Origin: a virus
Lineage: Duplodnaviria > Caudoviricetes
DNA: 62,877 nt
Direction: 5' to 3' (one strand)
IMG/VR virus record: IMGVR_UViG_3300046167_000556
Coordinates: 1 to 62,877 of that record
A program made the translations under genes and the position numbers. The notes under the pieces were generated by a model. The model ran no database searches. It saw only the letters and a list, made by a program, of their open reading frames with translations, and was not told the DNA's origin. Position 1 is the stretch's first letter. The number at the start of each line of letters is the position of its first letter. Of this stretch, positions 1,143 through 62,247 are shown one piece after another.

Positions 1143-1161
1143 TTAAATTAAATTAAATTAA

Positions 1162-3927: not shown

Positions 3928-3935
3928 AAACAAAT

Positions 3936-5625: not shown

Positions 5626-5746
5626 CTAAACAAAAATACGCTGAGCGGCAAATTGATAAGTTTGTTAAATGGAGTTGGGAAATTAAAGGTAAAGTTAAAT
5701 ACAAAGATATAAAAGCAACTACAAACTAAATACGATATACAGTGTT

Positions 5747-5902: not shown

Positions 5903-6059
5903 CGAAGTTAAAATGAAGTTTGAGGTCATAAATTTATTTTTAGATAATGTATTATCAGAAATAAAACAAGTGTCCTTAAAGACTTCTAAAAAAGATATGG
6001 TAGCTTATATAAGCGCCTGGGAAAATGAATTATCAACTATTAAATTTATGATACAGTAA
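5895..6059 (+). CDS. Hypothetical protein (54 aa)
   Basis: Manually read ORF MDDEVKMKFEV...; stops immediately before nrdB. Confidence 0.55.
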   Translation: MDDEVKMKFEVINLFLDNVLSEIKQVSLKTSKKDMVAYISAWENELSTIKFMIQ

Positions 6060-6060
6060 T

Positions 6061-7029: not shown

Positions 7030-7603
7030 ATGATTTATGTAAAAGATAATTTTTTACCATCTAATGTTTTTCAATCTTTATTAAGTTATAGCAATAATTT
7101 TAAAGAAGTTAAAACGCCGGGTAAATCTTTTTGGGTGAAAGAATTACCTGGTGATTTAACAAAACACATAACAGACAAGCTAGAGCTTATTGAAGGTAAA
7201 AAAATTAAAAATATATTGTCATTTTTAAGAGAAGCTAAAGAAACGCAAGACACTGATTGGCGTATACATAATGATTCTATAATAGAAGGCGAACAGCCTG
7301 ATAGAGCAATCGTTTTGTATGTAAAAAGCAATGAAGCTAAACTTAATGGAACTGCTTTTTGGGAAACATAAGGATTATAAATTTAATTATACAAAATCCA
7401 GTAACGAGGAGTTTAATCGTATGTTAACAGAAGATTCCAATGATGTAACAAAATGGAAGTTAAATTCAGTTATAGGGCACAGAGATAATAGGTTATTGTC
7501 ATACCCGTCAGAATACTTTCATAGTAAATACCCAAATAAGTTTAAAAATCAAAGAGTAGTATTAATAATGTTTTACAAATATGAACGGACAAAAACAGAG
7601 TAG
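7030..7603 (+). CDS. 2OG-Fe(II) oxygenase-like protein (frameshift at ~7364)
   Basis: IHND (HxD), GTAFW, NRLLSY, FHS...R. Removing one A from GGGAAAC joins the two ORFs. Confidence 0.75.
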
Positions 7604-7821
7604 AGTAGATAACTTAGAGAAAACGTATGGCTGCAACAACTAACGTTATTCAGCAAGTGATAAATGAATTATCTTATTTAAAAGACCTATCAATAGGTAC
7701 ATTAGAAACAATTAAAAACATGGAAAGTTATGAGCAAGCTATCGAAAAACTTAAAGAAAAAGTGGTTGCAGAATCTGGTAAGGCAGAAGAGGCTGACGCC
7801 AGTGGAAAGACTTTCGAGTAG
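7580..7821 (+). CDS. Hypothetical coiled-coil protein (probable frameshift near 5' end)
   Basis: ATG at 7580 followed by ORF 7627-7821. Confidence 0.5.
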
Positions 7822-8008
7822 ACTAGGATATATGGGGACTTCATTTATGATGATGAGTCCTCATTTACTACCCGATAAAACAGGTATGATTACTTACATA
7901 ATAGCAGGTGTAATATCAATACCCCAAGTGTTTGTGGCTAAACAATGGAATTTAGTCGCAGTTAATTTAAACGTAGCAATAGCTTACATAATACTATATT
8001 TAACATAA
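7730..8008 (+). CDS. Small membrane protein
   Basis: About three hydrophobic segments; abuts the nrdA start. Confidence 0.6.
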   Translation: MSKLSKNLKKKWLQNLVRQKRLTPVERLSSRLGYMGTSFMMMSPHLLPDKTGMITYIIAGVISIPQVFVAKQWNLVAVNLNVAIAYIILYLT

Positions 8009-9730
8009 ATGAGTTGGAATGAAAATTGGATCAAAGGAGAAGATTACCCTACGTGGGGTGATACAGACGTATACAAGAAGACAATATCCGGGGGATATTT
8101 ATATAACGGAGAAACGCCTAAAGAAGCATACTATAGGGTCGCTAATGCAGTTGCTAGGCGATTGGATAAACCGGAAATGGCCGAAACGTTTTTTAATTAT
8201 ATTTGGAACGGTTGGCTATGTCTTGCTAGTCCGGTTCTTAGTAACACAGGGACCGATCGTGGCTTACCTATTAGCTGCTTCGGTATTGATGTCGCTGATA
8301 GCATACAAGATATCGGTCAAAAAAATCTAGAAATGATGCTACTCGCTAAGCACGGCGGTGGAGTTGGCGTTGGTATAAATCAAATTAGACCCGCTGGCAC
8401 TAAAATTACAGGTAATGGAACATCAGACGGAGTTGTCCCTTTTTGCAAAATCTATGATAGCACAATACTCGCGACTAATCAAGGATCAGTCAGACGAGGA
8501 GCTGCATCGGTTAACATCAACATTGAACACGATGACTTTGAAGAGTGGCTTGAAATTAGAGAACCTAAAGGAGATGTCAACAGACAATCGCTTAATTTAC
8601 ATCAGTGTGCAGTTGTGGGTGATAAGTTTATGCGACGCCTTGAACAAGGAGATAAGGATGCTCGATCTAGATGGAGTAAACTTCTTAGAAAACGAAAAGC
8701 AACTGGAGAACCGTATATTATGTTTAAAGGGAATGTTAACAAGGCAAATCCAAAAGCATATAAAGAAAACGGATTAAAAGTACATATGACTAATATATGT
8801 AGCGAAATAGCATTACACACCGATGAGACACACAGTTTTGTATGTTGTTTATCATCATTAAATTTAGCAAAGTATGAAGAATGGAAAGACACTAACCTTA
8901 TATATGACTCTATTTACTTTCTTGACGGAGTTATGGAAGAATTTATTCAGAGAGCAAAAGGTTTACGGGGATTTGAGAATAGTATTAGGTCCGCGCAAAA
9001 AGGACGGGCTTTGGGTCTGGGAGTCCTCGGATGGCATACATATCTCCAGGACAGAGGTATTCCTTTCGAAGGTTTACTTTCTCAGTTTGCGACTAGGAAA
9101 ATATTTTCGCAAATTAAAATCGAGAGTGAAAGGGCTTCTATGGCTCTTGCTGAAGATTACGGCGAGCCTCTTTGGTGTGCTGGTACTGGTATGCGTAATA
9201 CTCATTTGCGGGCTGTTGCTCCCACTGTATCTAATAGTAAGCTTAGTGGGAACGTCTCACCAGGAATAGAGCCTTGGGCTGCTAATGTTTTTACTGAGCA
9301 AGGAGCTAATGGTACTTTTATTAGGAAAAATCCTACGCTTGAAAGAGTTTTAGAAGAGCTAAACTTAAATAATTCTAAAGTCTGGAATAAAATATTAAGC
9401 GATGGAGGATCAGTGCAAGATGTTAAGGAACTAGATGGTTTATTAAATGGTGAAGATGTGCTTGTTAAAGACGTTTTTAAGACGTTTAAGGAGATCAATC
9501 AACTAGAGTTAGTTAATCAGGCTGGAATACGCCAACAGTACATAGATCAAGCTGTAAGCTTAAACTTAGCTTTCCCATCTGAAGCTACTCCAAAGTGGTT
9601 GAACAAAGTTCATTTCGATGCTTGGAAAAAAGGTGTTAAGACTTTATATTACACTAGAACTGAAAGTGTTTTACGTGGAGATATTGCAGCTAACGCTATG
9701 AATGAAGATTGTTTAGCGTGTGATGGATAA
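8009..9730 (+). CDS. nrdA: Ribonucleotide reductase class I alpha subunit (no ATP cone)
   Basis: ISCF, GGGVG, TNICSEI, CCLSS, VAPT, KTLYY and C-terminal CLAC. Confidence 0.97.
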   Translation: MSWNENWIKGEDYPTWGDTDVYKKTISGGYLYNGETPKEAYYRVANAVARRLDKPEMAETFFNYIWNGWLCLASPVLSNTGTDRGLPISCFGIDVADSIQDIGQKNLEMMLLAKHGGGVGVGINQIRPAGTKITGNGTSDGVVPFCKIYDSTILATNQGSVRRGAASVNINIEHDDFEEWLEIREPKGDVNRQSLNLHQCAVVGDKFMRRLEQGDKDARSRWSKLLRKRKATGEPYIMFKGNVNKANPKAYKENGLKVHMTNICSEIALHTDETHSFVCCLSSLNLAKYEEWKDTNLIYDSIYFLDGVMEEFIQRAKGLRGFENSIRSAQKGRALGLGVLGWHTYLQDRGIPFEGLLSQFATRKIFSQIKIESERASMALAEDYGEPLWCAGTGMRNTHLRAVAPTVSNSKLSGNVSPGIEPWAANVFTEQGANGTFIRKNPTLERVLEELNLNNSKVWNKILSDGGSVQDVKELDGLLNGEDVLVKDVFKTFKEINQLELVNQAGIRQQYIDQAVSLNLAFPSEATPKWLNKVHFDAWKKGVKTLYYTRTESVLRGDIAANAMNEDCLACDG

Positions 9731-9746
9731 TATGCTATACATAATT

Positions 9747-9782
9747 AAAAAACGCCTCTAAATTAATTAGGGGCGTTTTTTT
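9747..9782. terminator. Bidirectional rho-independent terminator
   Basis: AAAAAACGCCTCTAA-loop-TTAGGGGCGTTTTTTT lies between the converging arms. Confidence 0.9.
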
Positions 9783-9814
9783 ATTTAAGGAAGTTTTGAG
9801 TATGGTGCTCATTT

Positions 9815-12800
9815 TTATTTTTCCTTTAATTGTTTTGCTATTTTATCTAAAAACTTTTTTCTAGCATTCTTGCTTAAATTAGCAACATATATTTGAGTTT
9901 TGTCATCTAAAGATTCATAAGCTTTTTTTCTGTTTACTATTTTTTGCTTAGCGGAATCTACTCTTTTAGCTTTAGCTTTTTCTTTTTGCTTTATTTTTTT
10001 AGTTTCTTTAAGCTGCGCTTTAATTAAATCATCTTCTTCATTTTTAACATTAACATCCCAAGTCCTAAATCCTAAAGACAATGCTAACCTTTGGTATATA
10101 GTATTACGATTATCTAGCATTTCTGCTACACTCTGTATTTCAGCGTACATACGATCCAATGGTATGTTAGCTGCACCAGCAGACAAACTACCTAAAACAG
10201 AATACGAAGGACTTAAATTTAATTTTCCATTAGCAGTTAAATCAAACCCTCGCTCTTTCATTAACTTTTCATTGTATTGATAACCTCTTATAGCTCCATA
10301 TATTTTTTTAAGCTTAGATCCAATTGGAGGCGATAGGTTGGCAACTTGTATTATAGTATAAGTTTGATCACCTGTAAAGCCTTTGTCTTTTTGCTTAAAG
10401 TACTCCATTATAGTGTTTTTAATTTGAGCTACAACAGCTCCCTCTAACACCTGTACCTCTTAAAATAGAATCTATACTACCATTAGTTATTCTTTTTAAC
10501 TTTTCAGCAGTGCTTTTATCTATTTCTTCTTCCTCCTCTTCTTCACCAAATCCAGGTATCAATGCAAATATAGCTGCGGACAAACTGTTGAATATAAGAT
10601 TTTGTATTGCTCCATAGTACATTATTTTACTAAAGTTAGAAAAATCACTTTGCAGCATAGAAGTAGTTCCAGGCATTTGACGTCTTTTAATAATGTCTAA
10701 TGCGCTTCTTTTCATTATTCTTGAATACTGCTGAGTCGTATTTTGAAAAGCTAATACTAATCTACCTAATACACTTGCTTGTTCCATAGATACTAATGAC
10801 GGGTCACTAGATTGCTGAGATTGATCAGACACTTCAATAAAATCTAAAAACGCTTTGTCTTCAGCTTGCTTTTCTGTGTACAGGTTGTTACCTTCAGCAT
10901 CTTTTTGATTTAAGTAAGTATTAATTCTATTTCTGTAAAAAGTAGCTCCACCTGATGCAATTGCAAAACTATCTGCTATTTGCGTAGGTGTAAAACCTTT
11001 TTTAAGTAACCAGCTTAACGCTGCAGTAGCTTTGTTTTTTGAATTTGCTGCTTCGTTTGCAATTTCTGCCTCATTAACATCTGCTCTCAATCCACCTCTA
11101 CGTTGTTTTAATTTGTCAGAATTAAATAATGTAGAAAAATCTTTCCAGTATTGTTTTTGATTTGCAAACGCCGCCGCTGCTTTAACAGGGTTGTTATCAC
11201 TCCAGTTTAAAAAGTTACTAGTTGAAAGTAATTGTAACAATGCTGATCTACGGTTAAAAAACATTATAGATCCTATAGAGTTGTTTAGCCAGTTATTCCA
11301 CTTGTTAACCTGAGCATTTGTTCCAGACGGTCTATTAGTACCGTTTTCCATTCTATACAAAGAATCTTTTAAAGCGGTTACATGTCTTTTACCGTATAAA
11401 GCTTCTATTTTATTTAGGTTTTCATCGCTAAATATTTCATTTACATTTTCAATCCACTCTGCTAAATATGCTTTTCTACCACCTTTTTCAGTTAAGTTAT
11501 TTATATCTGATAATATTGTACCAACATCCCAATGTTCACTAGGTTTTAACCATTCATTACTTTTTGATATTAAAACCAAGGACTCTGCATAGGCTAATAA
11601 TTCAGGATTACCTGCTACATAAGCAACTAAAGTTCCAACTTCTTTTTCATTTAAACCAGGAACAGCATAACCAGCTTTATTCCATAAATAAACCCTAACA
11701 GCTTGATCATTTGTATAATCTTTAGTAGGTATTAAATCACCTATAGTTTTAGCTATATTAGGCATTGCCTTGTTTAAAGCTTTGAAATCGTTTTTAGTTG
11801 TTTGTTTAGCAACATCAATAGCAGCTACACCTTCTGTATAAGGTCTTATTAGGTTTTTATCAAACCAAGCCATATCTTTAGTACCTTGCTTTCCTTTGCC
11901 TGAAAAAGTATAACCAGTAAGTAATCTAAAATCTTCAGCAGATGAAGGTATATAAAATTTATATTTACCTATACCCGCGCCCATTCTTTTAGCTACTATT
12001 TTAGAGTAAGTAACATCAGCAGCGACACCTTTATTTCTTTGAATTATATTGTTAAATTCTTTAGTTAAACTTAATTTGACGCCTGAATCTAAAGCTTGGC
12101 TTTCAAGTTCAGCCCTAGCTTGAGCATTTTTAACAATTACCTCAGGGTCTAAATTTGTTATAACTTTATTAATCGCATCAGCGGATTTTTTATATACATT
12201 AACACCGTCTGCAAAATATATACTGCTTTTATTTTTACTATCTAAAGCTGAAAGTCTTCCTTCTAAGAACGGGTTTGTTTCACCTAAAGCAACATCTTGA
12301 ATATCCGAAACATACTTAGCGTTAATAGTTTGATTAAAATCCAACAAAACTTCACTGTTTAACACATTCAATAAAGTAGATACATTATCAAGCGCTTTAG
12401 GATTATTTTTCAATAAAGAAAGCATGCTTAAAGTATTTTTAGCAAGAGCTATAGTAGCGCCTCCTACAGATTTTTGATGCTCTCCCTTGGGTTGTAAATA
12501 CTTATCTATACTTAAATTTGTATTTGCTCTTTTAGAAAAAAATCTTTGCTTAGTGGTTTTTTTCTTTTGGGTTTTAGATAATTTTTTCCAAGCTTTTTCA
12601 GAAGCTTCTTTTTGCGCCGCAACAGCTTCTTTATACTGTGGATGCTTTGTGTTTAGCTCTAGAGTTTTTAATTTGTTTTGTTTTGTATATCCTTTTCCGT
12701 CTTTATCTAAGTATACTGCTTGACTTCCTTCAAAAAGCTGTATTCCAACAGGAACAGCTAAAGCTTTTAAAGCATTACCAATATTAGTATTAGATTCTAG

Positions 12801-15800
12801 CCATCTTAAATATCCCGGTATTAGAGCTTCGTTTTTAGCTAATATCTTAAAAGCTTTAGAATTTAAGTATTCAAATAAAACTGTATTTGCTTTCCTTGCT
12901 GCTTTTATTTTTTCACTAAATAGTTCTTGAAACTCTTGCGCTTTTTGCTCAGCAGTTCCTTTGCTATTCGCTTGCCAACTTAAAATATCTTTGTAAAGTT
13001 TGTTACTACGTGATACTACAAATATATCGTTTTTAACAGCTTCAACCGCAGCAAAACCAGGATCAACAACTTTTATGTTTAAGGCTTTTTGTATAAACTT
13101 TCTTAAAGGGTTACTAGTATTTATGTACCTGCTGTGAAAACCTAAAAACGTTTTTGAAACACCTGGTATTTTAAATAATCCCGCAGGAACTATTTCTGCT
13201 AATTTTTCAGAAAATGCTGCTAATTCTTGTAACCCCTGTTCACTAGCGGTAGTATGCTCCGCGTATTGATTAAAATATTTTTGATACTCTTTAAAGTTTT
13301 CTATTTCCTTTTTAAACTTAGGGCTTGTAAAAACTGTTCTAACACCAGCTGAAATCTTATTAAAAGGTTTCGACCAGTAGTTATCCCATTCATCTTTTAC
13401 TTCATCAGATGAGTTTTCATACCATTCTATAAAAATCTTCAGAAGATTGATCAAACCTATTATCAACAAGTATGCTCGCGCCTACTAGAATGTCTTTACT
13501 AATTGAAAACTTAATATTACCTCTTTCAATTTGACGAGACATATCTTCTTCAAAGTTTTCTGTAATAACAACACCTAAAGCTTCTTGATTATTTTTTAAT
13601 GCTTCAGAAATAGGTCCATCTGTTTTTAAATCCTGATTAATAATATCAAAAGCAATTTCTTCACCCATAGCTTTAGCTAAAGATTCTTTTCTACCTCTAA
13701 TAGGTTTACCGTCAGGTCCCTATAATAGAACTTAAAAATAATTCGTCCGATATAGCTTGGCTTATATTAGGTACTCTTCTTATTATTTCATTACCTGATG
13801 TTTTACCTTTTGCTTCTGTCGATGTTTTTTCTCTATCTACTTTAGCTCCTTTCCATACGTCGCTATTTACAAAATTAGGAACAAATGTAGCGTCTCCAAA
13901 AGTGTTTATAACTCTTTTACCGTCTTTATCTAATAAATATTTTCCGCCTACAGATTTTTGTATAGCCTCAGGAAATGCTTTAGTTAAATAAAAGGTTGTC
14001 ATATTCTCCAGAATAGCCTTTTTATTAGCTTTAAGATAGTTTTGCAACTCGTTGTTCTTAATACCACCCATTTCTTTTTTAAGTACAATATCGGCTTGTT
14101 TTCCAATGTCCTTTTTTATCTCGGCAATAATTGGAGGTACGCTAACGTTTTTAGTTACGGAAGCATCGAACTTAGATTTTAATACTCTAACAGATGAAAT
14201 AACTTTATCTCTAACAGTTTTTAAACCATCTGTACTTAAAACTTTTTGTTGTACTAAATTTTTATATTTAGGTTTTTCGGAGTAACTGGAGCAGTTGGTT
14301 CGCTGGCTGTAATTCCTTTTGCTTCAGATACGTCAACATCAAAAGCAGAATCTGTTACTTTACCTGTATTTAAAGCACCTTTCATTCTATTGTTTAACTG
14401 AGCCATTAAATAACCGAACAAAGAATCGTTTTGCTTTGGATCAAATTTAGCGATGTAAGGAAGCATGTTAGCTATAGTTTCACTAACCATACTGTTCATA
14501 TCAAACCCAGGGAAGCGAGTTAAGGTTTACAATATTACCTTTTTTAGTTTTAAAAACTAATGATTTAGATTTTATAAGACCTTTTAATATGGTGTATATT
14601 TTAGGATTATTTTTATTAAAACCATCAGGATTGTTACCTATGTCGTCAAGCTCTTTTTTAGATTTAGCTGTTGACTCTTTTAATGCTTGGCTATCCGCTT
14701 TAACCGGTTTTGGCTTAGCTAATGCTTTGGCTTTTTGACTTACTGCGGATTTATCAAATACTACAATGTTTTCGGTGTCTCTACCAGTTATTAAATCTGT
14801 ATCTGTAAATCTAGTTGCTTTAATACCTTTTTCAGCAAGAGCTTCGTTTAGTTTGTTTAAATCCTCTTCAGTAAAAGCATTTTCAAATCTAGCATCTATT
14901 AATTCATATAAACGAGAATCGTCTACTGTCCAACCTTCAATTCTTGGCTGTATATTTAAGTCTCTTATTACTTCAAATACTTGAGCTTCAGTAGCAATTT
15001 CAGCTTCATTTATTTTAAAGCTTTGCACTTTACCGTTGCTGCCTTTAGCATATTCTTCCGCTTGCTTTTTGCTTTCTGAAAAGTAAATATTACCATCTAT
15101 ATCGTTTACGGTTTTAACCGCTCCTCCGTGAAATACTTCAATGTCTTTTTTAGGATCCTTAGCTACTACAGCTGCTTCTGCTTTCTCAGCTCTTTCAATT
15201 TTACTCTCTAAGTTGGCCTTTTGTTGTTCGTAAACATCAAAATCAATTTCACCATCTTCATACTCCGTTTCAAGTTGCTCTAGCTGTTGATTAAACTTAG
15301 TAATACTTAACTTGTCTTTTGTTAATTTTTCATCTTCTTTACTGACAGCGGTTTTAACTATAGGATCTTGTACTGTTTTTCCTCCGAAGTGACTAGCTTT
15401 ATTATAATCTTTTACAAAGTAATATGCACTTTCACCGTCTTTTAACTGGATTGTGCTTGGAAGAAATTTATTTGCAAAAAACCTAATTCTATCGATTGTG
15501 CTTTCTGTTACTTTTTGGCCATCAGCTAATACATCAGACATAGCGTTCATCGCTTCTTCGTAGTAGTCTTTTTGCTTTACAAGCTCTCCTTCAATGTTTT
15601 TATTAGCATAACTTTCGTCAATTCTAAACTTAACTTTAGCATATAGATCAGGTTGATTTTTTTGTAAATACGTTAGTAGACTTTCTCCTGCGGCATCAAT
15701 ATTGTCTTGATTCTTACCAAAGTTTTCTCTAGCGTATTTATGTAAAACTTCATGCGCAAATATTCCTGTTCTCCTATTTTTAATAGAAGATTCCATATTA

Positions 15801-18800
15801 ATTACAATTTGATTACTTCCTGATATTGCTCCTCCTTCGTAAGATCCATTATCTATAGCTTCTCTAAGCGTTGTTTTACTGCCACTTTGTGCAGGCTTGT
15901 CTAATTTCCCTGGGTCACTTTTTTCAAAAAAAGCAATAATATCCTTTTTAGTTTCTGCAACAACAAATTCAACGTTTAAACCTATATCGTCCGCAAACTT
16001 TTGAGCGTTTGTTTGCCCTTTTTGTATTCTTGCTTTATAAGTTTTATTAACGTAATTATTTAAAGCCTTATCGTTTATTTCTTTTGCAGTAGGTTCTTTT
16101 GCTCCTTCTTTTTGTTCTTCTTTTAATAATTCAATAGCTTCATCGACTTCAGCTTGTTTTGCTTCAGGTGATAAGTTAGCAAAATTGTTTGCTACATATT
16201 GAGAGCTTTCTGCAAGCATTTTTGTTTTGTAAAACTCATAACCTTGTGAGCTATCAAAAGAAACCCCTTGAGCTGCCGCGTTTTTTCTAGCAGCTTTTAT
16301 ATCTGTTTCGTTGGTTAAAATCTGCTCTCTTTCTCCAGCTAATTCATTAAACTCTCCTCTTAGTACTTTCTCTATATTTGATAGTTCACTAGCTTTTATA
16401 TTAGGATTAGCGTAAGCATCAATTAATCTTTTATTTAGTCTACGTATTTTTTTATTAACTTCACCTACTTTTTCTAAAGCTTCTGGAGATAGGTCTGTGC
16501 CTATTTTAAATAAAACACCGTCTTCTAAAGCTTCACCTTTTTTTACTAAATCATCTACAGTTTGTTGTGTTTCTGTAGGTAAGTTTAAGTTTTTTAAAGC
16601 AGGGTCAGATGGTCCTTGAATTTCTATATTTGTTAATTTTCTTAATTTAGAAGTTATATTGAATAACTCATCAACTTCTGCTCTATTTGCTAATTCGCTT
16701 ATTACAGCTTGCTTAACACCTTTAAATGCTGTAACGGCTCCAATTCCGCCACCCATTAAAGCTCCTTGAGCAAAACTTTCAAGACCTCCTTCAAAAACAC
16801 TTTTATCTTCATTTAAGAAATATACATCTCCTATGTTTTGAAATAATGTAGTTCCAAATTCAGAGCCTCCTTCAACTCTAAGGCCTTTTTCTAATTGCTT
16901 ACTAACAAACTCAAACCCCTCTTTTACTGTTTGAGGAGGCAGCATTTTAACACCGTCTTTTAATCCTTTTAAAAGTCGCATTGTACCTATTCTTTCGAAA
17001 GCTACTTCAGCTATACCCGCTAAGGCTTGGTTGCTTAGTATTTTCCAATCTTCTATTTTAAGAATGTCTGCGTCTTTATTCATTTGGGTTTCAATAGAAG
17101 CTTGCTCCAATGGATCCATATTTGGATTTTCTTTTAACAGCTTATTATTGTTTACCATTCTTTCAGAAGCTTCTTTTTGCTTAATAGCCATTTCCATCCC
17201 TTTACCACCAGCTCCAGATAAAAAGAATAAAGGCATAGCTACAGGTCCGGTCATAGCCATACCTAAAGAAGGTAGTAAATTGGGTATAGATCCAGCAACC
17301 CATCTGCCCGCATCTTTAACGCTGCTTATTTCATCGACAGTTATTGCTCTTTGAAAGTTTTCCATTTCTTTCTGCATACTGCTACCTAATGAAACTAAGC
17401 TTGTTTGTTCTTCTACTAAAGCAGATATTTTAGCTCCAGCTGCTACTTTCATTAAAGAATAAGGATCTCTAAGAATATTTAACTGAGCCATGCTATACAT
17501 AACATCTGTACCCATTGATTTAGTAGCTGAAACGAGCTGCTCTAGTCTATCGTAATTTCTATTAAAATCGTCAATAGCGTAAGGAATAGCTTTTTCTCTG
17601 TCCGCGACACCAGAGTCCTCTAGTGTTTTTTGAGCTTTTTGCAAATCATTTTGTTGCTTTAAATAAGATGATTGCAATGCAAAGGCTTGTAGGTAGTTTT
17701 CTTTAGATTGAGTCCTACTATAATTATCTAAAGCTACTTCTAATTCTTCTTTTGTGTTAAATAGAGCGGTAGCATTGTCTTTAAAGTTAGATATTTTTTC
17801 TTCGTCCTCAGAAGCTAATGCTAATATAGACGTTCTTTGCTCAGGGCTTAAGTTGCTAACGTACTCAGAAGACTTAGCTAGGGCATAGTTGTTTCTACGT
17901 TCTCTATCGTACAAAGCTATTTCATTGTCGCTAACGTCTTTTACAAAACCATTTTTTTGGTAGTCTTTATATGCTTTAAATTCTTCAGCACTATTAAAGT
18001 CTTCTTTGGTAGCTTGTTTTTTTATTTTTTTACTTCCACTTCCTTTGTAAAACCTTGCCTCTTCAGGTTTCATTAATCCAGACTCACGGTATTCTTTAAA
18101 GGACATAGTCGATGTACTATCGTCTACCTCTTGAAACTTTTTTAGCCTTTCCGCTTTTATGCTAGAATTTAATTCGTCTTTAGTTAAGTCAGGTGCTTGT
18201 ATTTGTTCAGCATAGTTTTCATATGCTACAGATTCCTTTCCGGCAGAAGTACTTAAATAGTCTAAATTACCACTTTGCTTTATGTATTGATTAATTGCTT
18301 TTGCAGAAGCTTGTAAATCTTCTTTACTTTGATTTTTTCCAACTTTAATAGCTTTAAGAAGATCAGCTAAAATACCTAAGTTAGGATCAGCTTTATCTAT
18401 ATTTGACAACGATACTGCATCAATGCTTCCTAAAGCAGTAGCTTGCTCAACAGTTATACCTAGTCTAGAAAGTTTTTTGTTTAAAAAAGGAGCTATGTCC
18501 TCTTCGCTTCCTTTACTTAATTCTTCCGGCGTAACGTAGTATTTGGATTTTGGATCAGGATCTTGTGATTCCGATGAACCATTTTCCAAGTCTAATACCG
18601 TATCGATTGGTGTTGTTTGATTGTTTGGCAGAGCATTTACACCTGCTGCACTGCCTGTTGTATTTCCCGAGTTTTCGGTTATCAACTTTAAATTGTTTTT
18701 TTGTATTAATTCTTCTACAGAAAAACCACTGTCTGCAGCAAGTGTTAATAGTTGTTGTTCAGTTATTACTTTCCCTGTTCCTTCTTGACGGTAATCGCTC

Positions 18801-18802
18801 AT
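9815..18802 (-). CDS. Giant (~3000 aa) DNA-ejection/polyvalent virion protein, split by ~5 indels
   Basis: Last and largest of three ejection-type genes. ORFs 14501-18802, 14254-14499, 13712-14071+, 13417-13668+, 10419-13469 and 9815-10450 join by single-base shifts. Contains HEVLH, ART-like and sigma-2-like motifs. Confidence 0.75.
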
Positions 18803-21481: not shown

Positions 21482-22927
21482 TTAATATGATGATTCTACA
21501 TAGTTTGTTGATACGGCGAATAATTCTTTTTTACCACCAACGTCTGTAATATTGTCAATAGAAAAAGTAGCGGTTACAAACATTCCTTTTATACCAGACA
21601 TCGATTGGCCGTATATTACTTCACCTGGTCGACCTAAACTATTGTTCTTTATATTACTTACGTATTTGTTTTCTTTTCTGTTAAAACCAGCTCTAGACTT
21701 AGTATAAGGAGGTCTAGTAACACCGAACACGGATTGGTAATTAGCTGGTAATACAGGTTGACCTGTAGCTGGGTTTAAAATATACTCTCCTTCATTGTAG
21801 CTTTTTATAGCTAAAGTTCTATCTGAAAAATTAGCTCCATTATCTACTCCTGTAGAGTCTGAGACAAAAGAATCTATTCTCCAACCATTACTTCCTTCAT
21901 ACCCTGCGGTTGAAAAGTTCTTAGATAAAGAAACTTTAGGATTAAAAACTGTTGTAACAGTTGACTCAACAGATGATCCATAAAATTTATTATACTCTTC
22001 GCCAAAGTAATGTTTCCAAAGCCCGTTTTTACCACTATTTGGTTCTCCGTAAGTTGAGTAAAAGTTATTTTTTAAACTAAAAATATTATCAGGCTTATAG
22101 CTATATCTACTTACCCATCCTTTAGATCCTTCGTCAAAAGCCAATGTATCGTAATCTATTCCATTATTGTTTTGTAAAGAAACAACGTAAGTTTTAGTGT
22201 GTACATCAAAACCGCCTATAACAGAACCTAAATTAGAAGAATTGAAATCTATCTTTATAAACTTATCTCTGAAAAAATCTTTCATACCATATGCTGATAT
22301 TTCAGTTATTCCATCAGAAGAAAGTCTTAGTACTGCATTTCTATTCCTGTCTGTAAAGTATTTTCTATATCCATAAACAGCGAAACTACCAGGGTCTTTA
22401 GATATTCCGTACTCTCCAGCATAAGGTACTACTTGCCCAATAACTTGAGAACCAGAAGTTGTAATAGCTCCACCTTCGGCCGAATAAATAGCATCTTTAT
22501 CTATCAATGCTTTGCTTACTTTGTTTTCTTGCAGTATAGTAAGGTTAGTATTTTCAGCATACAACTTTTGAATACTACCGTTTGATGGATCCAAGCTTCT
22601 AGTAATTTCTTCGCCAACCGGGAATTGGTTAGTGTTATTAACACCTGTTCTTGAATTAAATATGCCTGAGTATATTAAGCTATTAGATACTATAGATGCT
22701 TTATTAGTATCTGCTACTAAATAAGCTTTAGCTCCAAAATCTACAGAAGTATTATTATAACCGCCTCTAATTCTAGATTCTTCAATAATCCAGTTTTTAG
22801 CATCATTGGTTCCCAGCCCGGTTGTTTTGTACCACACAGGCACATTAGGTGGATTAGCATTATCTGCTGTTACGGTCTTACGTAGTAGAAAAGAGTTAAA
22901 ATATTTTACTTCTATAATAGCGCTCAT
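21482..22927 (-). CDS. Tail nozzle/stabilisation protein
   Basis: Beta-propeller-like content (YAGEYGISKDPGSF, YFTD, GWVSRYSY). Confidence 0.7.
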   Translation of the reverse strand: MSAIIEVKYFNSFLLRKTVTADNANPPNVPVWYKTTGLGTNDAKNWIIEESRIRGGYNNTSVDFGAKAYLVADTNKASIVSNSLIYSGIFNSRTGVNNTNQFPVGEEITRSLDPSNGSIQKLYAENTNLTILQENKVSKALIDKDAIYSAEGGAITTSGSQVIGQVVPYAGEYGISKDPGSFAVYGYRKYFTDRNRNAVLRLSSDGITEISAYGMKDFFRDKFIKIDFNSSNLGSVIGGFDVHTKTYVVSLQNNNGIDYDTLAFDEGSKGWVSRYSYKPDNIFSLKNNFYSTYGEPNSGKNGLWKHYFGEEYNKFYGSSVESTVTTVFNPKVSLSKNFSTAGYEGSNGWRIDSFVSDSTGVDNGANFSDRTLAIKSYNEGEYILNPATGQPVLPANYQSVFGVTRPPYTKSRAGFNRKENKYVSNIKNNSLGRPGEVIYGQSMSGIKGMFVTATFSIDNITDVGGKKELFAVSTNYVESSY

Positions 22928-52815: not shown

Positions 52816-53204
52816 GCGGATCTTTAGAATTTTTAATAAAAAATTTTTTGTTAGATACAGGGAACTATGGGGTTATATACTATATTCTACTGACATAAAA
52901 AAATAATAAACCCGTTTTGTTTTGACCCAGTCCCCGTGTGTTTTTACGCTTTCGGGATAGGCTTTTGCCTTTCGTATGGTTTTCCTGCAATATGTTGAGG
53001 TATTCGGGACTTGTACTGCTGCGGCGTGCGCTTGATCCTGTGCTGGTCTGATCTGGTCCTGGTCTCTGATGCTTGTGCTTGACAACCTCCCTTGATGGAA
53101 GCGGAGCGTAGCAAAGCGTATAGCATTTACAAAGTAGATACGAAGTATATTTGATAATATAAGTGAATAAAGAAATTAATAATAATAATTTAAAAATAAT
53201 AAAA

Positions 53205-53348
53205 ATGTCTTTAACAAAATCAATTAACATTACTTCAAAAGATTTCAACAACATTGAAAAAGTATTTCATACTTATCTTCAAAATAATCCAAAAGATCAA
53301 TCAACATTAAAAACAATACAATCTATAATTAATCAATCCATAGATTAA
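53205..53348 (+). CDS. Early hypothetical protein (47 aa)
   Basis: ATG after an A-rich leader downstream of the first motif. Confidence 0.6.
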   Translation: MSLTKSINITSKDFNNIEKVFHTYLQNNPKDQSTLKTIQSIINQSID

Positions 53349-53463
53349 ACCTCCCCTCGAGGAGCCATCGAAATCAAAGTATAATTACAAAGTAGATACG
53401 AAGTACTACTGATAATATAAATGTAACTAAGTAAATAATAATAATAACTAAATAAATTAAATT

Positions 53464-53784
53464 ATGACTAATCAAGAATTAATGACTCAAGCGATCGCAA
53501 ACATGACTAACGAAGAGAAAGCAAAGATCTTTCCACCAATCGAACGTAAGAACTTCGTAGTAAGAAAATCATGGCTCGGACGAAACCAAGTAATCAAATT
53601 CGTCAACAACAAAAATCAAGTTGTAACGTACAACCACGATACCATACTTGAAGCGATGTTACCTAAACTAAGTATAATGCCATGTTGGATCAAACGAGGA
53701 TACTGGTCTCAATCAACTAACTTACCAACCAATGTTAGGCATCTAGCCGAGATCATTGATCAAGAAGTCGAGGTAACTAAATAA
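53464..53784 (+). CDS. Early hypothetical protein
   Basis: 106-aa ORF after the second motif. Confidence 0.75.
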   Translation: MTNQELMTQAIANMTNEEKAKIFPPIERKNFVVRKSWLGRNQVIKFVNNKNQVVTYNHDTILEAMLPKLSIMPCWIKRGYWSQSTNLPTNVRHLAEIIDQEVEVTK

Positions 53785-53872
53785 CCTCCCTTGATGGAAA
53801 CCCCTAATCCATCTTCCTTTACAAACTGAATACGAATAGTAACTGATAATATATACGAATAACAAATAAATT

Positions 53873-54022
53873 ATGAATACACGATCAAAACAAACCGAAT
53901 ACTTAAAAAATATTATAACCGATCTGGAAAATAAAAACGATAGAATCGCATTACTATGGACTTTAGCAAATAGTAAGAAAATAAACAGAAGACAGTTCAA
54001 AGAATTAATTAACAAACTATAA
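53873..54022 (+). CDS. Early hypothetical protein (49 aa)
   Basis: Manually read ORF after the third motif. Confidence 0.6.
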   Translation: MNTRSKQTEYLKNIITDLENKNDRIALLWTLANSKKINRRQFKELINKL

Positions 54023-54106
54023 TAACATGAAAAAAGTAATCACGAAAGTAATAAACGAATTAAAACTAATGCGCTAAAGCAATTCATTCAATAAAACAAT
54101 AATACT

Positions 54107-54247
54107 ATGTACGAAAAAAAGATTATAACAAGACAAGACGGATCAACATACGAATCATACTTTTGGAAAACAGTTGCTGATCTGCAATGGACCGAAGCTC
54201 AAGAGCAGATGCAAAAAGCTATCGATCAGTTCGGAACCTCATCTTAA
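54107..54247 (+). CDS. Early hypothetical protein (46 aa)
   Basis: MYEKKIITRQDGSTYESYFWK... Confidence 0.55.
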   Translation: MYEKKIITRQDGSTYESYFWKTVADLQWTEAQEQMQKAIDQFGTSS

Positions 54248-54249
54248 TA

Positions 54250-54298
54250 ATGCGACAGTAGCCTACTATTATAATATATAACAGGCTATTGTCACACT
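54250..54298. repeat. Palindromic element, copy 2
   Basis: ATGCGACAGTAGCCT...AGGCTATTGTCACACT. Confidence 0.8.
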
Positions 54299-54837
54299 GT
54301 TTAATTTTCCCAGCCGTTACCTAAATAAAGTAACGAATATGGAGCCTGATCTTGAAATATGATCGGAAGAGTAGACTCCGTCCTACACCAAAGTGTATAG
54401 CATCACCTAACTTTCAGCGATCTATTAGATTTTCTAGTGAAAATTACCGTTTATTTGATGTATAGCATTTACAAAGTCGACACGAACACCTTTTGATAAT
54501 ATATATGAATTAAAATACTAACAATAACTACTAAAAACTAACTAAATGATCGTTTTAAACCGAATAACCTAGGAGAGATATTACTACCGACTACTTAAAG
54601 TTGATGAAAGGTGAAATAACTAACGCTGAATTCGAAGAAATTGCAGGTATACCAAGGGATTTGGACCTAGAGAAGAGGTGAGTTACAACTACAACACTAT
54701 TCGATCGATGAAATAAAAGTACACCTATTTGAATTTACAAACTAAATACGATAGAGTATTGATAATAATAGTGTAACAAACAATAATTAATAACTAAGTT
54801 GACTATATACTATGTCCACTGTAAAATACCAATAAAT

Positions 54838-55613
54838 ATGGAGCAATACGAAGAATTACACCAAAAGTTGCAAGAAGGAACTATAACACCTAACGAACTT
54901 AAATTACTAAATCACTTAGCTTTCGGAACTCCCTTCATGAACTCTAACAACAAAGGAACTAAAGTAAAATACTATTAAAAATGGAAAATAACCTACTAAA
55001 CTATATTGATTTTACATCAATAACCGAAGATTTCGATCTAAAACACGGAGATATATCACCTTATCAAACCGTAAAACTAGAAGAATTGTTAAAACAATTT
55101 ATTGACCAAAATAGTGAAGGATTTATAAAATAACTATATATGAAAGAATTTTACGAATTTTCAAGTGAATTAGAGTATGAAGAGTATGCACAATTAATGT
55201 GGTTAATCAATAATAATAAAGTATAATATGGAACTATCAAACACGGAAACAAATGTACTATTGGTCGCGTTAGACCATATGGAAGAAGAAATACAAGACC
55301 TAATGCAAGAACGTGAACTACGCGGTGATATGTGGCAAGAACGGTTAAATGCGTGTGAATCTATAAGAACTAAAATTAAACAACTATGATGACAATGAAA
55401 GAAGCGTGCGAATACGTTAAAAACCAAAAAGTAGCGAATGCTATACGTCGTAACAATGTCGTTGCGATCAACGGATCTTGTAGTGGAGTAACGGAAAAAC
55501 AGTACAAAAGTATTAAGACCAAAGCAAAAGGTGCGGGGAGTCGCGGTAGAAAGCACTCACACACCGCTCTATGGAATCACTACAACGAACCAGTAAAACA
55601 ATTTACAAACTAA
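54838..55613 (+). CDS. Run of early microproteins (54838-54978, 54981-55133, 55228-55389, 55386-55613)
   Basis: Closely packed ATG ORFs after the motif at 54734. Confidence 0.6.
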
Positions 55614-55661
55614 ATACGATTACCGATCGATAATATATATGAACTTAAAATAATAAAAGAT

Positions 55662-56402
55662 ATGAAAGTATACTCAAATGACATCCCGACCATCAAGTAC
55701 CTAAAATCAAACGAAATTAAATTAGACGGTAGAAAATACAAAGGTTATAACGTCGGTGAATTACCATCTCGCTTCGCTTTTATCTACGACGACAACGAAG
55801 AACAAGACGGAATTACAGAGTGGTTCAACCACAAAGGATTAACTTATGTACCTAAAAACTAATGAATACTATGAAAACAAATGATAAATTAAATGCGGTA
55901 GAACATATATGGTATGCCGAATCCGATCGGTGGATCTACATCGAACGATATGCAAGTGGTTACTTAGGTTTAAACTTCATGCAAGGTGACGAGTACGAAC
56001 ACTTTAAAATTAAGTGGTGCGAGATCGATAGAGGTATGAGTGAATTCTATGACACTATGAAAAACGATCTTTTGAAATTAAGAGTTGAAATGAGTGAGTT
56101 AGAGTTTATCGACAAAGTAATGTGGATCTACTTCGAAGCTAAAGTAAAATATGACGAAAATAAATAATGAGATATATATACACTAAACGTAAATGGAAAA
56201 CAACATGGAAAATAAATTAGAAGAAATAGCACAAGGAGTGGCCGATGTCACACTAGAATTAATGGAAGATAGTGTTGATTGGCAACTAGCGGATTTCCCT
56301 CAAGACGGCGACGAATACGGTGCTATACACTCTAAAGTAATGCACCTTGCAATCAAGCAAATGTATTTACAAACTAAACACGATAGCGGATCGATAATAT
56401 AA
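55662..56402 (+). CDS. Three early hypothetical proteins (55662-55862, 55862-56167, 56193-56402)
   Basis: ORF track; cassette between two motif copies. Confidence 0.7.
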
Positions 56403-56522
56403 TTGAATAACGATAAGACTCAACAAGTTATAATCTACGAACCCAGCGGCACAGCGGTGGTAGTTAGTTATAAATGTGAGTAATAGGCGACAGATACGAT
56501 TAACGATCACGTAATAGCCGGC

Positions 56523-56634
56523 AACTAGGTATGGAGCGCTAGTGGTACAAGCACCTTTGAATACTCTTCAAAGCCAGAGACCCGAAGCAACACTACTGAC
56601 GAGTATGAGGGTTCGATTCCCTCGCTAGTTACTA
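56523..56634 (+). ncRNA. Atypical tRNA-like RNA
   Basis: Perfect T arm GAGGG-TTCGATT-CCCTC, acceptor AACTAG/CTAGTT, D-like arm GCT-AGTGGTACA-AGC and hairpin CTTTGAA/TTCAAAG, all in an ORF-free gap. Confidence 0.6.
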
Positions 56635-56651
56635 ATTTAAAATTAAATATT

Positions 56652-57335
56652 ATGAGTAAAATTAAAAAAGTAGATGAAGTTGTAGATTTTAGTGTGTTCA
56701 CTAAATTTACTAAAGACTTAGGATTGTTTCAAGTCAATGCAAGTGTATGGAGTATGGTGTCTCAAGATTGCACCAATAGTCACGACATATCCGACATTGA
56801 ATTAGATTTTTCAATAGACAATAAAAGATGCAAATACAACGGCTTTAAAGAGATCTATGAAAAACTATACGGTATAAACACTTTCAACCAATTTACAGCC
56901 GAATTAATGGCGGAATTTGAAAAAGCATATTTTAAACAAACAACCTATAAAACTAAATAATATGAGTAAGACTAAATTTAACGGATTCGAAAAGTATTTT
57001 ATCCAAACAGCGTTGAGACACGCTATTGAAGAAGCAGAAAAAGATGTGTTAGCTGCCGAAGCTGACGGTAAAAGATCTATATATGCACCGGGTTATTTTA
57101 CTATGGTGGGTAATGAGATCATTGACAAAGTAAATAGTATGACACTTAAAAAATACCAAGACTAATGAGAAACGAACTTAAACAAGTGTTAATGGAACGC
57201 GACGGTATGACCGGTATTGAGGCAGATCTAGAGATCAAAGATATACGATCTAGAGTGTATAAAGGCGAAGACGCTGAAACAATATTATTCGAAGAGTACC
57301 GATTAGAACCTGATTACTTATGGGATTTAATATAA
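56652..57335 (+). CDS. Three early hypothetical proteins (56652-56960, ~56962-57165, 57165-57335)
   Basis: Coupled ORFs. Confidence 0.7.
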
Positions 57336-57396
57336 TTTACAAACTAAATACGAACAACTATTGATAATATAATTGTAACAAACTAAATATAATAAT

Positions 57397-58554
57397 ATGA
57401 AAACATTACTAGAACGCCTTAAACCTGAAATTAAACTAAGATTAGAAGCAAACACCTCTCAGTACACTAGTACTGTTGATAATATCTTTAAAAACCTTTC
57501 ATCAAAAGTTTTTTATCAAGATCTAACTATGAGTGAAATAAGTACGCTATACACATTCTCTGACATAACGTTATTGAAAACGTCTATATGGGATCTAAAA
57601 CACGGCGATAACCTATTTATAACAGAGTATGATGACTAAACAAGATATACATAACCGAGCAAGTGATAAAGCTTTCGCTAAAATGTCTATGCTTACATTC
57701 GAAATAACTGACAACAAAACATCGTTAATGACCGGCAACTACGGCGGCGATATAACTGAAGAAGAAATGAGAATGATCTTAGATAGTAATAAAGTAGAGT
57801 TAAAAGTGTGGAATTACATTGCTGAATTAATAGAAAAAAATGAATAAAACTAAATATATAACAGACGAATTGATCAACGAACGTTTAGAAGCTAAAGGTT
57901 TCGGTGATAAACAAACAGAAGACGACGAGGTTGCTAGAACAAACGTATTAAACCATTATGGCGTTGAGCTAACTAGCGACTGGACTAGTAGAGCATCATA
58001 TTATATATATGAAGAAACTACTAAAGACGGTTACTCTGTGTATGTAGCTACCGACGACACTGACAACATAAGTGTATGTGAAGATATATACTACTATGAT
58101 AGTGATCTCGCTGATGTACTTGAAGAACAAATCAAGTATTCCAACGGTGATGAAGATTACCCTGAGATAATATATGTAGACGATCTTTACCAAGACTTTA
58201 TTGACGGAGCTATTGAGAATTTATTTATATATTTATCAGAAAAGTTTGAAGAAGAAATTATTGACGAATTAATAGATGAAGGTTATGAGCAACAAGACTA
58301 AAGAACAAACAGTACCTAAATGGTTTAAAGGTATGATCTACGATCAAGGTGAAGAAGTTACAAACCCTTTTAGCGGTCAATGCTATACACTTACCGGTAT
58401 CGAGTTGTCTATGTACGACTTTATTCTCGGATGCCAATACATAATGGAGGTCGCACCTAAAACAGTGACACCCAAGCAAGTAAACGACTTTAACAAAGCG
58501 TTAAGCTGGTTTCGTAAAAATAATACCGAAGCATATATGGTGCTACTCGATTAA
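57397..58554 (+). CDS. Four early hypothetical proteins (57397-57639, 57629-57847, 57840-58301 acidic, ~58285-58554)
   Basis: Overlapping ORFs between two motif copies. Confidence 0.7.
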
Positions 58555-58699
58555 TTTACAAACTAGACACGATCAATAACTGATAATATATTTGTATGAA
58601 CCCAATAAATTTAATGCTACTGGCTGTATTTGCTCTAACTTTTATAGGTCCTATATACCTAGACTGGCAAATGCGAAAAAAAGATAACGAAGAATAATT

Positions 58700-59305
58700 A
58701 TGAATTTACTAACACAAAACTCTAAACTTAAAAAAACATCAAAAGTACTCGGGCTTCGGGTCTTTAACTTTGGTATTCCTGCCTACAAATCGTCAAGTGG
58801 GAAACTAACGTGCCCAATGGCTGACGGATGCATAAAATTCTGTTATGCCAAGAAAGGAGCCTACATCTGGAGTAATGTAAAACCGGCGTTTGAAAACCGT
58901 TATGAACTTAGCAAGACAGATGACTTTGTCGATGCGATGAATAACGAAATACGTAAGAAGAAACCTGATTACGTGAGAGTCCACGATAGCGGAGATTATT
59001 ACTCTACTGCGTATCTAAAAAAGTGGATCAAGATTGCAAACGACAATCCCGACGTGCGGTTTTACAGTTACACCAATATGATCGATATGATGCTAAAAGC
59101 TTCATTGCCAAGTAATTATGATATAATATTTTCTGATTCAGGAAAGCAAAAACATTTAATAGATGAAAGAAAACACAGACACACCAAAATATTTTCTAGT
59201 CATAGCGATCTTATTTCTGCTGGCTATACTGACGCTTCATCTACTGATCTAATGGCTACTAGATGGTTTAATGATACAAATAAAGTAGGGTTAGTATTTC
59301 ACTAA
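58700..59305 (+). CDS. Gene product 88-like protein
   Basis: TCPMADGCIKFCYA, VRVHDSGDYY, FYSYT. Confidence 0.75.
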   Translation: MNLLTQNSKLKKTSKVLGLRVFNFGIPAYKSSSGKLTCPMADGCIKFCYAKKGAYIWSNVKPAFENRYELSKTDDFVDAMNNEIRKKKPDYVRVHDSGDYYSTAYLKKWIKIANDNPDVRFYSYTNMIDMMLKASLPSNYDIIFSDSGKQKHLIDERKHRHTKIFSSHSDLISAGYTDASSTDLMATRWFNDTNKVGLVFH

Positions 59306-59698
59306 AATAATAAATTATGCACAAAGAACCTTTAAAAATTACATTAGAGTTTTATAATAAAGAAATCTCTACACAAATAGATCATTCAGATTTAACTCTT
59401 GAAGAGCTCCATGAGTTATGGCTAGAAATAGTTAAAGCTATGGGTTACCACCATAAAACAATAAAAGAATTTTATGAGTAATAATTTAGTATTAAAACAA
59501 ATTAACAATAACGTAAATGATAAACGCAGTATGGAGAGAGAAGAATTAATAAAATTAATAATGGAACGTATCTACACTAGACGCATATACGCTGAGAAAT
59601 TAGCTGACGACATATTGCGTTTATCTAGTTTTAAGCACAGTAAATAATTTACAAACACGAACAATAAACGATAATATAATAAACAAAAACAAAAACTT

Positions 59699-61485: not shown

Positions 61486-62247
61486 ATGAAAAAATATAAC
61501 ATACAAAACTATGTAAGATACAAAGCTGATGTTAAACAATCTATTGCTCGGCTTGAAGGTAAATTTTGGGACGAGTATACTAAAGAAGAACTAATTATAA
61601 AGTTTTTACCTTTAACAGAGAACATAGCTAGAAAGTTTTCAACTTCTGATCAAGCATCAGGAGTTTTAAGTATTAATGACTTAATACAAGAAGGTTCTAT
61701 AGGTTTAGTTAAAGCTATAGGTAAACTAGATATGAACAGAGTAATTGAATCTAACGATCCTGAGAAGACATTAAAATCATTCTTAGCTAAACGTATTAAA
61801 GGATCAATTAGACGCGCTATAGACATTAATAGAGGTAATATTCGTATACCCGAGTACAAGTTAAATGAGATAAGAAAAGACTTTGGTAAAGATAAAGCTT
61901 TAGTAGCTATGTTTTTTAATAGTATATTTTTGAGTATTGATATACCAGCTAATGAAGATGACGATAACTTTGCGTTTCAAATACCAGATGAATCTGAACC
62001 TTATAATATAGCGTTGATGAATGTTTACTTAACTAGCTTATGTAAAAAGTATTTAAGCGATAATGAATATGAAGTACTAAGGCTTAGCTATGGGCTTGAC
62101 TGCGAAAAACTACCAGGCAAAGAAATAGCTGAGGTATTAAATATGACTGGCCCTAGTGGTTATGTAAGAGTTTCAGAGCTTAAAAAGCAAGCTGTGAATA
62201 AATTAATCGACTCTGTTGACCACACGCAAGTGCTTGACTTCCTTTAG
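61486..62247 (+). CDS. Phage-encoded sigma70-family sigma factor
   Basis: Region 2 (LPLTENIARKF, DLIQEGSIGLVKAI, IKGSIRRAI), IRIP, region 3 LSID and region 4 HTH (VLRLSYGL...KEIAEVL...RVSELKKQAVNKL). Confidence 0.92.
   Translation: MKKYNIQNYVRYKADVKQSIARLEGKFWDEYTKEELIIKFLPLTENIARKFSTSDQASGVLSINDLIQEGSIGLVKAIGKLDMNRVIESNDPEKTLKSFLAKRIKGSIRRAIDINRGNIRIPEYKLNEIRKDFGKDKALVAMFFNSIFLSIDIPANEDDDNFAFQIPDESEPYNIALMNVYLTSLCKKYLSDNEYEVLRLSYGLDCEKLPGKEIAEVLNMTGPSGYVRVSELKKQAVNKLIDSVDHTQVLDFL

Follow-up and report, generated by a model that had tools for sequence, protein, structure and literature searches.

Three ways are known in which phages start an infection: they use the host holoenzyme, they inject a complete RNA polymerase (as N4, crassviruses, and phiKZ-like phages do), or they inject an enzyme by which the host polymerase is modified (T4 Alt). 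Within a sigma factor, region 2 is the part that deals with the −10 element and grips core RNA polymerase at its β′ clamp helices. The T4 sigma factor gp55 also binds the β′ clamp helices and reads one AT-rich, −10-like element, aided by gp33 and the sliding clamp. In the part of the PhiCrAss001 work that bears on virion cargo (PMC10172136), the genes behind the muzzle gene are described as encoding such cargo, including RNA polymerase proteins that were found in virions by mass spectrometry and are thought to be ejected. The main text of Iyer et al. 2017 (PMC5512222) describes polyvalent injected proteins as very long, multidomain proteins whose modules can be exchanged and which are presumed to accompany the DNA into the cell for host takeover, including that of RNA polymerase. 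The word “sigma” is absent from that main text (supplements not covered), and a full-text literature search, again with supplements not covered, found no sigma domain reported in ejection or polyvalent proteins. Here, we analyze a stretch of 62,877 bases (the window), which is the entire IMG/VR record IMGVR_UViG_3300046167_000556, and describe a giant protein encoded at the end of its late operon, which contains a domain that is very probably a divergent homologue of sigma-70 region 2 in a new setting. Such a region-2-like domain inside a giant late-operon protein is a new setting for a known domain.

The giant gene, of about 2,994 codons, lies at 9815..18802 on the minus strand (codons 18802-9818, stop codon 9815-9817). 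In the record, it is broken into six open pieces by five one-base insertions or deletions (indels); in nature, the gene is one intact open reading frame (ORF), as described below. The sigma-70 region-2-like domain (14371..14665, minus strand) comprises about 95 residues at about residues 1380-1480 of the ~2,994-residue ORF and is not a free-standing small protein. It consists of a short N-terminal helix followed by three long helices, with KFD(P/G) and L-Y-G-Y-I-N-x-R motifs in the loop and the last helix. An earlier reading of the DNA, made from the sequence only, had remarked that a peptide at this place parallels sigma region 2; profile-profile comparison, recurrent family matches, protein-language-model neighbors, and the predicted fold all bear this out.

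For profile-profile comparison, 57 non-redundant homologous domains (less than 90% identity) were collected from viral contigs. The reference consisted of 24 sigma region 2 segments from one Flavobacteriaceae genome, which were used instead of the phage's own sigma family because the profile of the latter was too narrow (120 homologues listed, all at least 74% identical). The 57-domain alignment matched this reference in hhalign with Prob 73.7 and P=2.9e-5, over 71 columns that span all of region 2 in the sigma register. A 400-residue alignment found the same place (P=7.2e-5), eight random halves of the 57-domain alignment gave P values of 4.1e-6 to 2.7e-4 with the register unchanged, and P was 6.1e-5 when sigma-A was left out of the reference set. 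The phage's own true sigma, run in the same test as a positive control, reached P=2.1e-4, so the domain scores at least as well as a bona fide sigma of this phage. Reversed-sequence decoys gave P values of 0.47 and 0.51. As judged from these alignments, the likeness to sigma region 2 exceeds chance.

Individual matches of the 57 members to known families are weak, and the most frequent ones are all to sigma families: phrog_234 (15 of 57 members at E<=1, best E 7.9e-4), TIGR02937 (12 of 57), FliA/WhiG (6 of 57), and phrog_1740 (4 of 57). The window's own piece matches phrog_234 with E=0.0046, over only about 29 profile positions (69-97 of 181); T4 gp55 matches the same profile at 3.4e-69. For a 120-residue segment, the ESM Atlas placed 21 of 30 named neighbors in a viral cluster set that carries PF04542, with a score of 0.96. 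Among GenBank phages, the region has no DNA match, and neither of the two conserved cores of the protein (see below) has a protein match; a 90-residue piece gave only E values of about 0.6-0.7, in five Lactobacillus/Levilactobacillus brevis phage records, where the matched gene is annotated as a sigma factor in four and as hypothetical in one. A phmmer search of PDB sequences with the intact homologue of a close relative (L005) gave nothing below E=0.15. The best match was Rok, and this winged-helix hint was dropped because the weak match did not recur in the 57 members.

The predicted structure agrees with the sequence comparisons. AlphaFold2 modeled the domain alone with a predicted local distance difference test score (pLDDT) of 89.9 and a predicted template modeling score (pTM) of 0.82, with helices at 2-9, 21-40, 47-60, and 73-92; a 416-residue stretch, modeled with the 57-row alignment, has a mean pLDDT of 80. 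When the domain model was compared with the PDB by Foldseek, sigma factor or holoenzyme entries made up 30 of the 41 rows listed, including the top 7. Template modeling (TM) scores of 0.5-0.6 were obtained with structures that contain region 2 only, namely the SigE N-domain (target-normalized TM [TMt] 0.60, root mean square deviation 2.9 over 72 columns), the SigC Pribnow-box region (query-normalized TM [TMq] 0.52, TMt 0.59), and sigma-E region 2. The 416-residue model gave sigma entries in 17 of 45 PDB rows, and in the viral library, the top row was a phage SigK, with named sigma factors in 6 of 50 rows. According to these models, the domain has the fold of sigma domain 2.

The domain is a regular part of the giant protein, whose family comprises 316 clusters at 50% identity in a library of 1.84 billion proteins. 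Of 111 full-length representatives, 103 contain it at E<=1e-5 (HMMER with --max). Conservation is strongest at K-[FWY]-[DN]-[PG] and L-[YF]-G-[YF]-[IL]-N-x-[RQ]...R, positions that align to the sigma loop and last helix, that is, to regions 2.3-2.4. The sequence-only reading made its proposal depend on the conservation of an FDP...Y pattern in homologues, and this pattern is kept in most of the 57: the lysine in 46, an F/W/Y in 48, a D/N in 50, and a P/G in 48, while the later aromatic residue, which aligns to the Y of the sigma-A SYA, is Y, F, or W in all 57.

The domain is flanked by low-complexity linkers, followed by a conserved PKY(R/K)NL motif and then by conserved core 1 (13500..14275, minus strand; PKYKNL in the window). 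Core 1 is the best-conserved part of the protein's middle and has invariant columns in the 57 sequences. Its AlphaFold2 model is helical with a small beta region (pLDDT mostly 80-94), and no family was assigned to it by Foldseek, Pfam, or the ESM Atlas; for the 161 residues that follow the domain, the Atlas gave no named neighbor at 0.9 or above. The C-terminal ~700 residues (core 2; 10422-12500, minus strand) are very conserved and contain hydrophobic stretches (IMFFNRRSA... and ...LFALIPGF, the latter followed by an acidic run). No family was found for core 2 in Pfam, PHROGs, or GenBank phages, and this block may form the membrane channel of an ejection protein. Between relatives, the N-terminal ~1,000 residues, residues ~1350-1800, and the stretch between the cores are variable, and the two cores are conserved. 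The homologue in one relative (L030; 2266-10725, plus strand) has an AAA_33/Zeta-toxin-type kinase module between the cores (residues ~1896-2048, Pfam E=6.5e-12), which the window's giant protein lacks.

The late operon on the minus strand consists of the large terminase gene (35011-37260), the portal gene, virion structural genes, a muzzle-like gene, three small genes, and finally the giant gene. The crassvirus-muzzle-like tail gene (21482..22927, minus strand), three genes upstream of the giant gene, matches PF25729 crAss_MUZ_C with 31.5 bits (cutoff, 27) and the virion structural protein family phrog_14478 with E=4.9e-47. The giant gene lies behind the muzzle-like gene, as the cargo genes of PhiCrAss001 do behind theirs, and because of this position and the architecture of its product, the giant protein is a likely cargo protein that would be stored in the virion and injected along with the DNA. 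It also fits the polyvalent injected proteins as they are described in the main text of PMC5512222, because its N-terminal third and middle vary and one relative has the Zeta-toxin/AAA_33 module; like them, it is very long, has variable modules around conserved cores, and is encoded among virion genes. In the nearest GenBank phage by terminase (MW202828.1, 65.5% identity), the same last-gene slot is occupied by a gene for 3,859 residues (741-12320) that is annotated as “reticulocyte binding/rhoptry protein” and shows no homology to the giant gene in core 1 or in the sigma-like domain. Related phages thus have unrelated giants in this slot.

The replication and early genes lie on the plus strand and include a gene for a free-standing sigma factor of 253 amino acids with regions 2 and 4 (61486..62247, plus strand; phrog_351). 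Its region 2 lies over the Pfam threshold (PF04542, 26.1 bits; cutoff, 24), and its region 4 is just under it (PF04545, 20.1 bits). One such gene is present in each of five complete relatives (L120-L124; 60-66% identity), that is, in all six genomes. Copies also occur in bins of metagenome-assembled genomes labeled Flavobacteriaceae, Bacteroidetes, Saprospiraceae, Aliivibrio, Clostridium, and others, which are probably binned phage contigs. No β′ catalytic domain was found in the window, nor was a DFDxD motif in any of its frames, nor DFDxD or DxDxD in any piece of the giant gene; D[FY]D.D occurs in 9 of the 111 representatives at no conserved place. A search of the window for a T7-like polymerase gave no match, though its control was uninformative. 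Because a sigma gene is present in six of six genomes and no polymerase is recognizable, the phage, to judge from its gene content, clearly depends on the host RNA polymerase.

A promoter-like motif, TTACAAA-N6-ACGA-N9-GATAAT, has 10 copies at 53127..59675 and an 11th at 513-544, all on the plus strand (11 matches versus 0.02 expected). Each copy lies 25-50 bases ahead of a start codon; the one at 59649 has a shorter spacing, and the fuller form of the motif is tTTACAAA-N6-ACGA-N9-yGATAATAtA. Five complete relatives (G001-G005) have two to seven exact copies each, on a single strand. Because the gene for the phage's own sigma lies within this motif-bearing plus-strand block, the reader of the motif must exist before phage protein synthesis. 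For the same reason, namely that its gene lies in the early cassettes, the phage's own sigma cannot be the first factor.

These observations can be combined as follows. Like crassvirus cargo and podovirus ejection proteins, the giant protein would travel in the virion and leave it together with the DNA. At the entry site, while phage genes are still silent, its sigma-like domain would then bind the core RNA polymerase of the host, and the polymerase bound in this way would help to get the conserved early promoter-like cassettes transcribed. The parts of this scheme differ in strength. That the domain binds host RNA polymerase seems fairly probable from its homology and the position of the gene, and an ejected giant protein whose sigma region 2 homologue contacts the host core polymerase is, on balance, the explanation that we favor overall. 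A positive, sigma-like role of this contact, rather than an inhibitory one, is proposed only tentatively. The most explicit version, which we regard as rather doubtful, is a virion-delivered minimal sigma: the giant protein would enter the cell together with the DNA or ahead of it, and the domain would capture core polymerase at the entry pore and, with the invariant block after it, direct the enzyme to the TTACAAA-N6-ACGA-N9-GATAAT promoters, so that the first phage transcripts, including that of the phage sigma, would be made without host sigma. Transcription might in that case also help to pull the genome in.

Several results weigh against an ejected sigma region 2 homologue that acts on the host polymerase, and they concern both the homology and the function. 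The sequence-only reading suggested scoring the peptide against the Sigma70_r2 model, and this check fell short: PF04542 matched 4 of the 57 members at E<=1, with a best E of 0.014, which is under the curated threshold, and one of 21 members in a smaller set (E 0.055, also under the threshold). In a six-frame scan of the window and five relatives, PF04542 had no match outside the genes for the free-standing sigmas. PDB sequences contained no match at E<=10 to a 21-domain profile, and no Foldseek row reached E<=0.001 with any model or library tried. A whole-length alignment of 14 giant proteins, which were poorly aligned, missed region 2 (best P=0.36, elsewhere in the protein), and the P values of smaller alignments were no better than 0.0018 to 0.0058. 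Comparison of the domain with the sigma family of the phage itself gave only P=0.012, and comparison with the single sequence of gp55 only P=0.077. A small helical domain could also retain its fold and yet have another partner.

With regard to function, a profile of 16 full-length extracytoplasmic function (ECF) sigmas matched only region 2 (P=0.0015), the next alignment having a P of 0.35, and no Sigma70_r4, helix-turn-helix, or other DNA-binding family recurs beside the domain in the 57 members. The statement of the sequence-only reading that no region 4 follows thus agrees with the ECF profile, Pfam, and Atlas results. Furthermore, the promoter-like motif is near-identical in six genomes, whereas identity of the domain between clades is only about 10-30%, and a clade of the L009/L013 type has lost the KFD motif yet keeps seven motif copies. 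Because the domain diverges and can lose KFD while the motif stays fixed, the domain is unlikely to be the part that reads the boxes. If the giant protein reads them, the invariant core 1 would be a better candidate, as the sequence-only reading had guessed; no DNA-binding fold or family that might read the ACGA or TTTACAAA boxes was recognized in this conserved block downstream of the domain.

An alternative that shares the homology and fold evidence in full is that the ejected domain is a sigma decoy, which would bind the β′ clamp helices only to compete with host sigmas and so shut off or stall host transcription. Three observations would suit it: neither region 4 nor any other module that would read a promoter was found, the fast divergence of the domain beside a fixed motif is expected of a protein that does not read DNA, and positive control could be left to the complete sigma that the phage encodes. 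However, the most conserved positions of the domain are those of the loop and last helix, which correspond to the DNA-handling regions 2.3-2.4, and are not restricted to the core-binding helix; also, the few copies that would be ejected, a presumed dose, would make a weak competitor against the sigma pool of the cell. We consider a pure decoy unlikely.

It is also conceivable, and we think distinctly improbable, that the domain descends from sigma region 2 and now serves a function unrelated to RNA polymerase, such as holding single-stranded or end DNA in the ejectosome, or capsid packing or assembly. Such a role would be in keeping with the surroundings of the domain, which is flanked by low-complexity linkers and belongs to a mainly helical protein of great length, none of whose other conserved blocks matches a known family; a similarity to working sigmas that stays under every curated threshold would suit it as well. 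On the other hand, the domain is kept in nearly all of the full-length representatives, the sigma-typical motif positions are retained, with the aromatic residue in every member, and the phage clearly depends on the host RNA polymerase.

That the resemblance arose by chance, the domain being an ordinary three- or four-helix bundle and not a sigma homologue, is very improbable. No single search reaches database-wide significance, and this explanation can draw on the subthreshold Pfam scores, the empty PDB profile search, the whole-protein alignment that missed the domain, and Foldseek E values of 0.47 or worse. Against it, hidden Markov model matches in three libraries, profile-profile comparison controlled by decoys and by a true sigma, a protein language model, and the predicted fold agree on both the family and the register.

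The integrity of the giant gene was examined with near-identical contigs from four independent seawater runs (X1, X2, X3, and X5) and with the three closest relatives (L005, L006, and L007). On the minus strand, a 1,433-codon ORF ends with ...NPKIYTILKGLIKSKSLVFKTKKGNIVNLNSLPWV (...NSLPWV) at 14504, and the frame that follows reads ...PGFDMNSMVSETIANMLPYIAKFDPKQNDSLFGYLMAQLNNRMKGAL..., from 14508 down to 14371. The sequence-only reading joined the two by removing one base at about 14510; this extra base (break 1, 14509..14510) is indeed left out in the contigs of all four runs and absent in the three relatives. It had seen only this break, and there are five. A missing base (break 2, 14278..14280) is inserted in the contigs of all four runs and present in the three relatives. 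An extra base at 13717..13718 (break 3) is left out in X2, X3, and X5, with X1 giving no cover, and is absent in the three relatives, and another at 13431 (break 4) is left out in X1, X2, and X3, with X5 giving no cover. Break 5, an extra G in a G run at 10442, is a single gap seen in comparison with L005 only, in a 92% identical stretch. Once the four contig-supported changes are made, the frame is open from 18802 to break 5. The latter splits off the final ~210 codons, which were called as a separate ORF (9815-10450); the piece 9818-10459 carries the homology on to the C terminus of the L005 homologue, and with break 5 corrected, the gene extends to 9818, not only to 10422. Relatives have single ORFs of 2,489-3,110 amino acids, and about 30 of them carry the gene as one ORF.

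Frame breaks of the same kind occur elsewhere in the window. The portal gene (32603-34787, minus strand) is split into two overlapping ORFs that match one PHROG profile at 79-287 and then at 313-823, and the GroEL gene (42118-43672, minus strand) is split likewise, with matches to one profile at 4-138 and then at 145-533. Because these two genes are also split, the record carries one-base indels well outside the giant gene. The breaks are best read as errors or private changes of this record and not as a property of the phage; with so many one-base indels, the gene calls of the record are not trustworthy. The notion that the domain is hidden across a frameshift, put forward in the sequence-only reading, consequently does not describe biology, the break concerned being one of five record-specific indels. 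That the breaks are real, so that the gene would be a decaying pseudogene or would make the sigma-like segment only sometimes by programmed frameshifting, is extremely improbable: five breaks do stand in the record and the first two bracket the segment exactly, but none of the four that were checked is present in the independent near-identical contigs, about 30 relatives carry one ORF, GroEL and the portal gene, which is essential, are also split in this record, and the break sites are unlike each other, with no common slippery sequence. Programmed frameshifting was rejected on these grounds.

The window, with an estimated completeness of 98%, comes from an uncultured marine podophage and covers nearly all of its genome, and near-identical DNA is held in seawater or marine metagenome runs from 18 studies. 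A terminase comparison with GenBank gave 87 related records, which are podophages of Flavobacterium, Cellulophaga, Tenacibaculum, and Maribacter. Because these terminase relatives are phages of Flavobacteriia, the hosts of the phage are probably Flavobacteriia as well. No tRNA genes were found in the window by ARAGORN. In the tail gene region at 23879-26588 on the minus strand, two ORFs (25707-26588 and 23879-25804) share about 100 bases; the former matches the early part of the 1,474-position phrog_14478, and the muzzle-like gene matches further along, so there may be another frame break here, or a fused or split tail gene. At 43749-50759 on the minus strand, a gene for a 2,336-residue protein with a C-terminal endosialidase-chaperone (Peptidase_S74) domain has a G+C content of about 0.39-0.40, versus about 0.33 in the remaining genome. 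Its product is likely a tail fiber or spike with an autocleaving chaperone.

With a family of 316 clusters and DNA in 18 studies, the function of the giant protein would concern a common group of marine phages of Flavobacteriia. Among known proteins, the closest structural relatives of the domain are sigma-70 domains 2, especially those of ECF type (SigE, SigC, and sigma-E): the order of the helices is the same, the KFD-type loop and the helix after it are in register, and TM scores are 0.5-0.6. Unlike these, the domain stays under the Pfam threshold, has no region 4, and lies inside a giant protein; in comparison with primary sigmas, the WW pair is missing from the domain in the alignment. 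With the polyvalent injected proteins and T4 Alt, in the published main text on the former, the giant protein shares its great length and multidomain build, and module variation is seen in its family also. It differs in that the hallmark peptidase and ADP-ribosyltransferase modules were not confirmed by Pfam, which at E<=1 found neither in the 1,433-residue N-terminal piece.

The virion-delivered machinery of other phages (PhiCrAss001 gp47/49/50, phi14:2 gp66, and the N4 virion RNA polymerase), as the cargo-related part of PMC10172136 has it, is carried in the virion, ejected, and starts early transcription. The giant protein differs from these polymerases in having no DFDxD motif and no β′ catalytic domain; it would bring only a sigma-like module, and the host polymerase would serve. 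If this is true, an injected sigma-like module would represent a fourth and cheaper way to start an infection, in which the specificity or docking subunit is brought along and the catalytic core is borrowed from the host. The closest working analogue is T4 gp55, a phage sigma that likewise has only a region-2-like domain and no region 4 and belongs to phrog_234, the most frequent family match of the domain described here. Direct similarity between the two is weak (the single-sequence P of 0.077 given above), and gp55 is a free protein of 185 residues that is made late, whereas the domain is embedded in a protein of about 3,000 residues encoded in the late operon, and any action it has would fall in the first moments of infection. 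Our findings show that region-2-only relatives of sigma factors, like gp55, can hide in giant proteins beyond the reach of standard family models.

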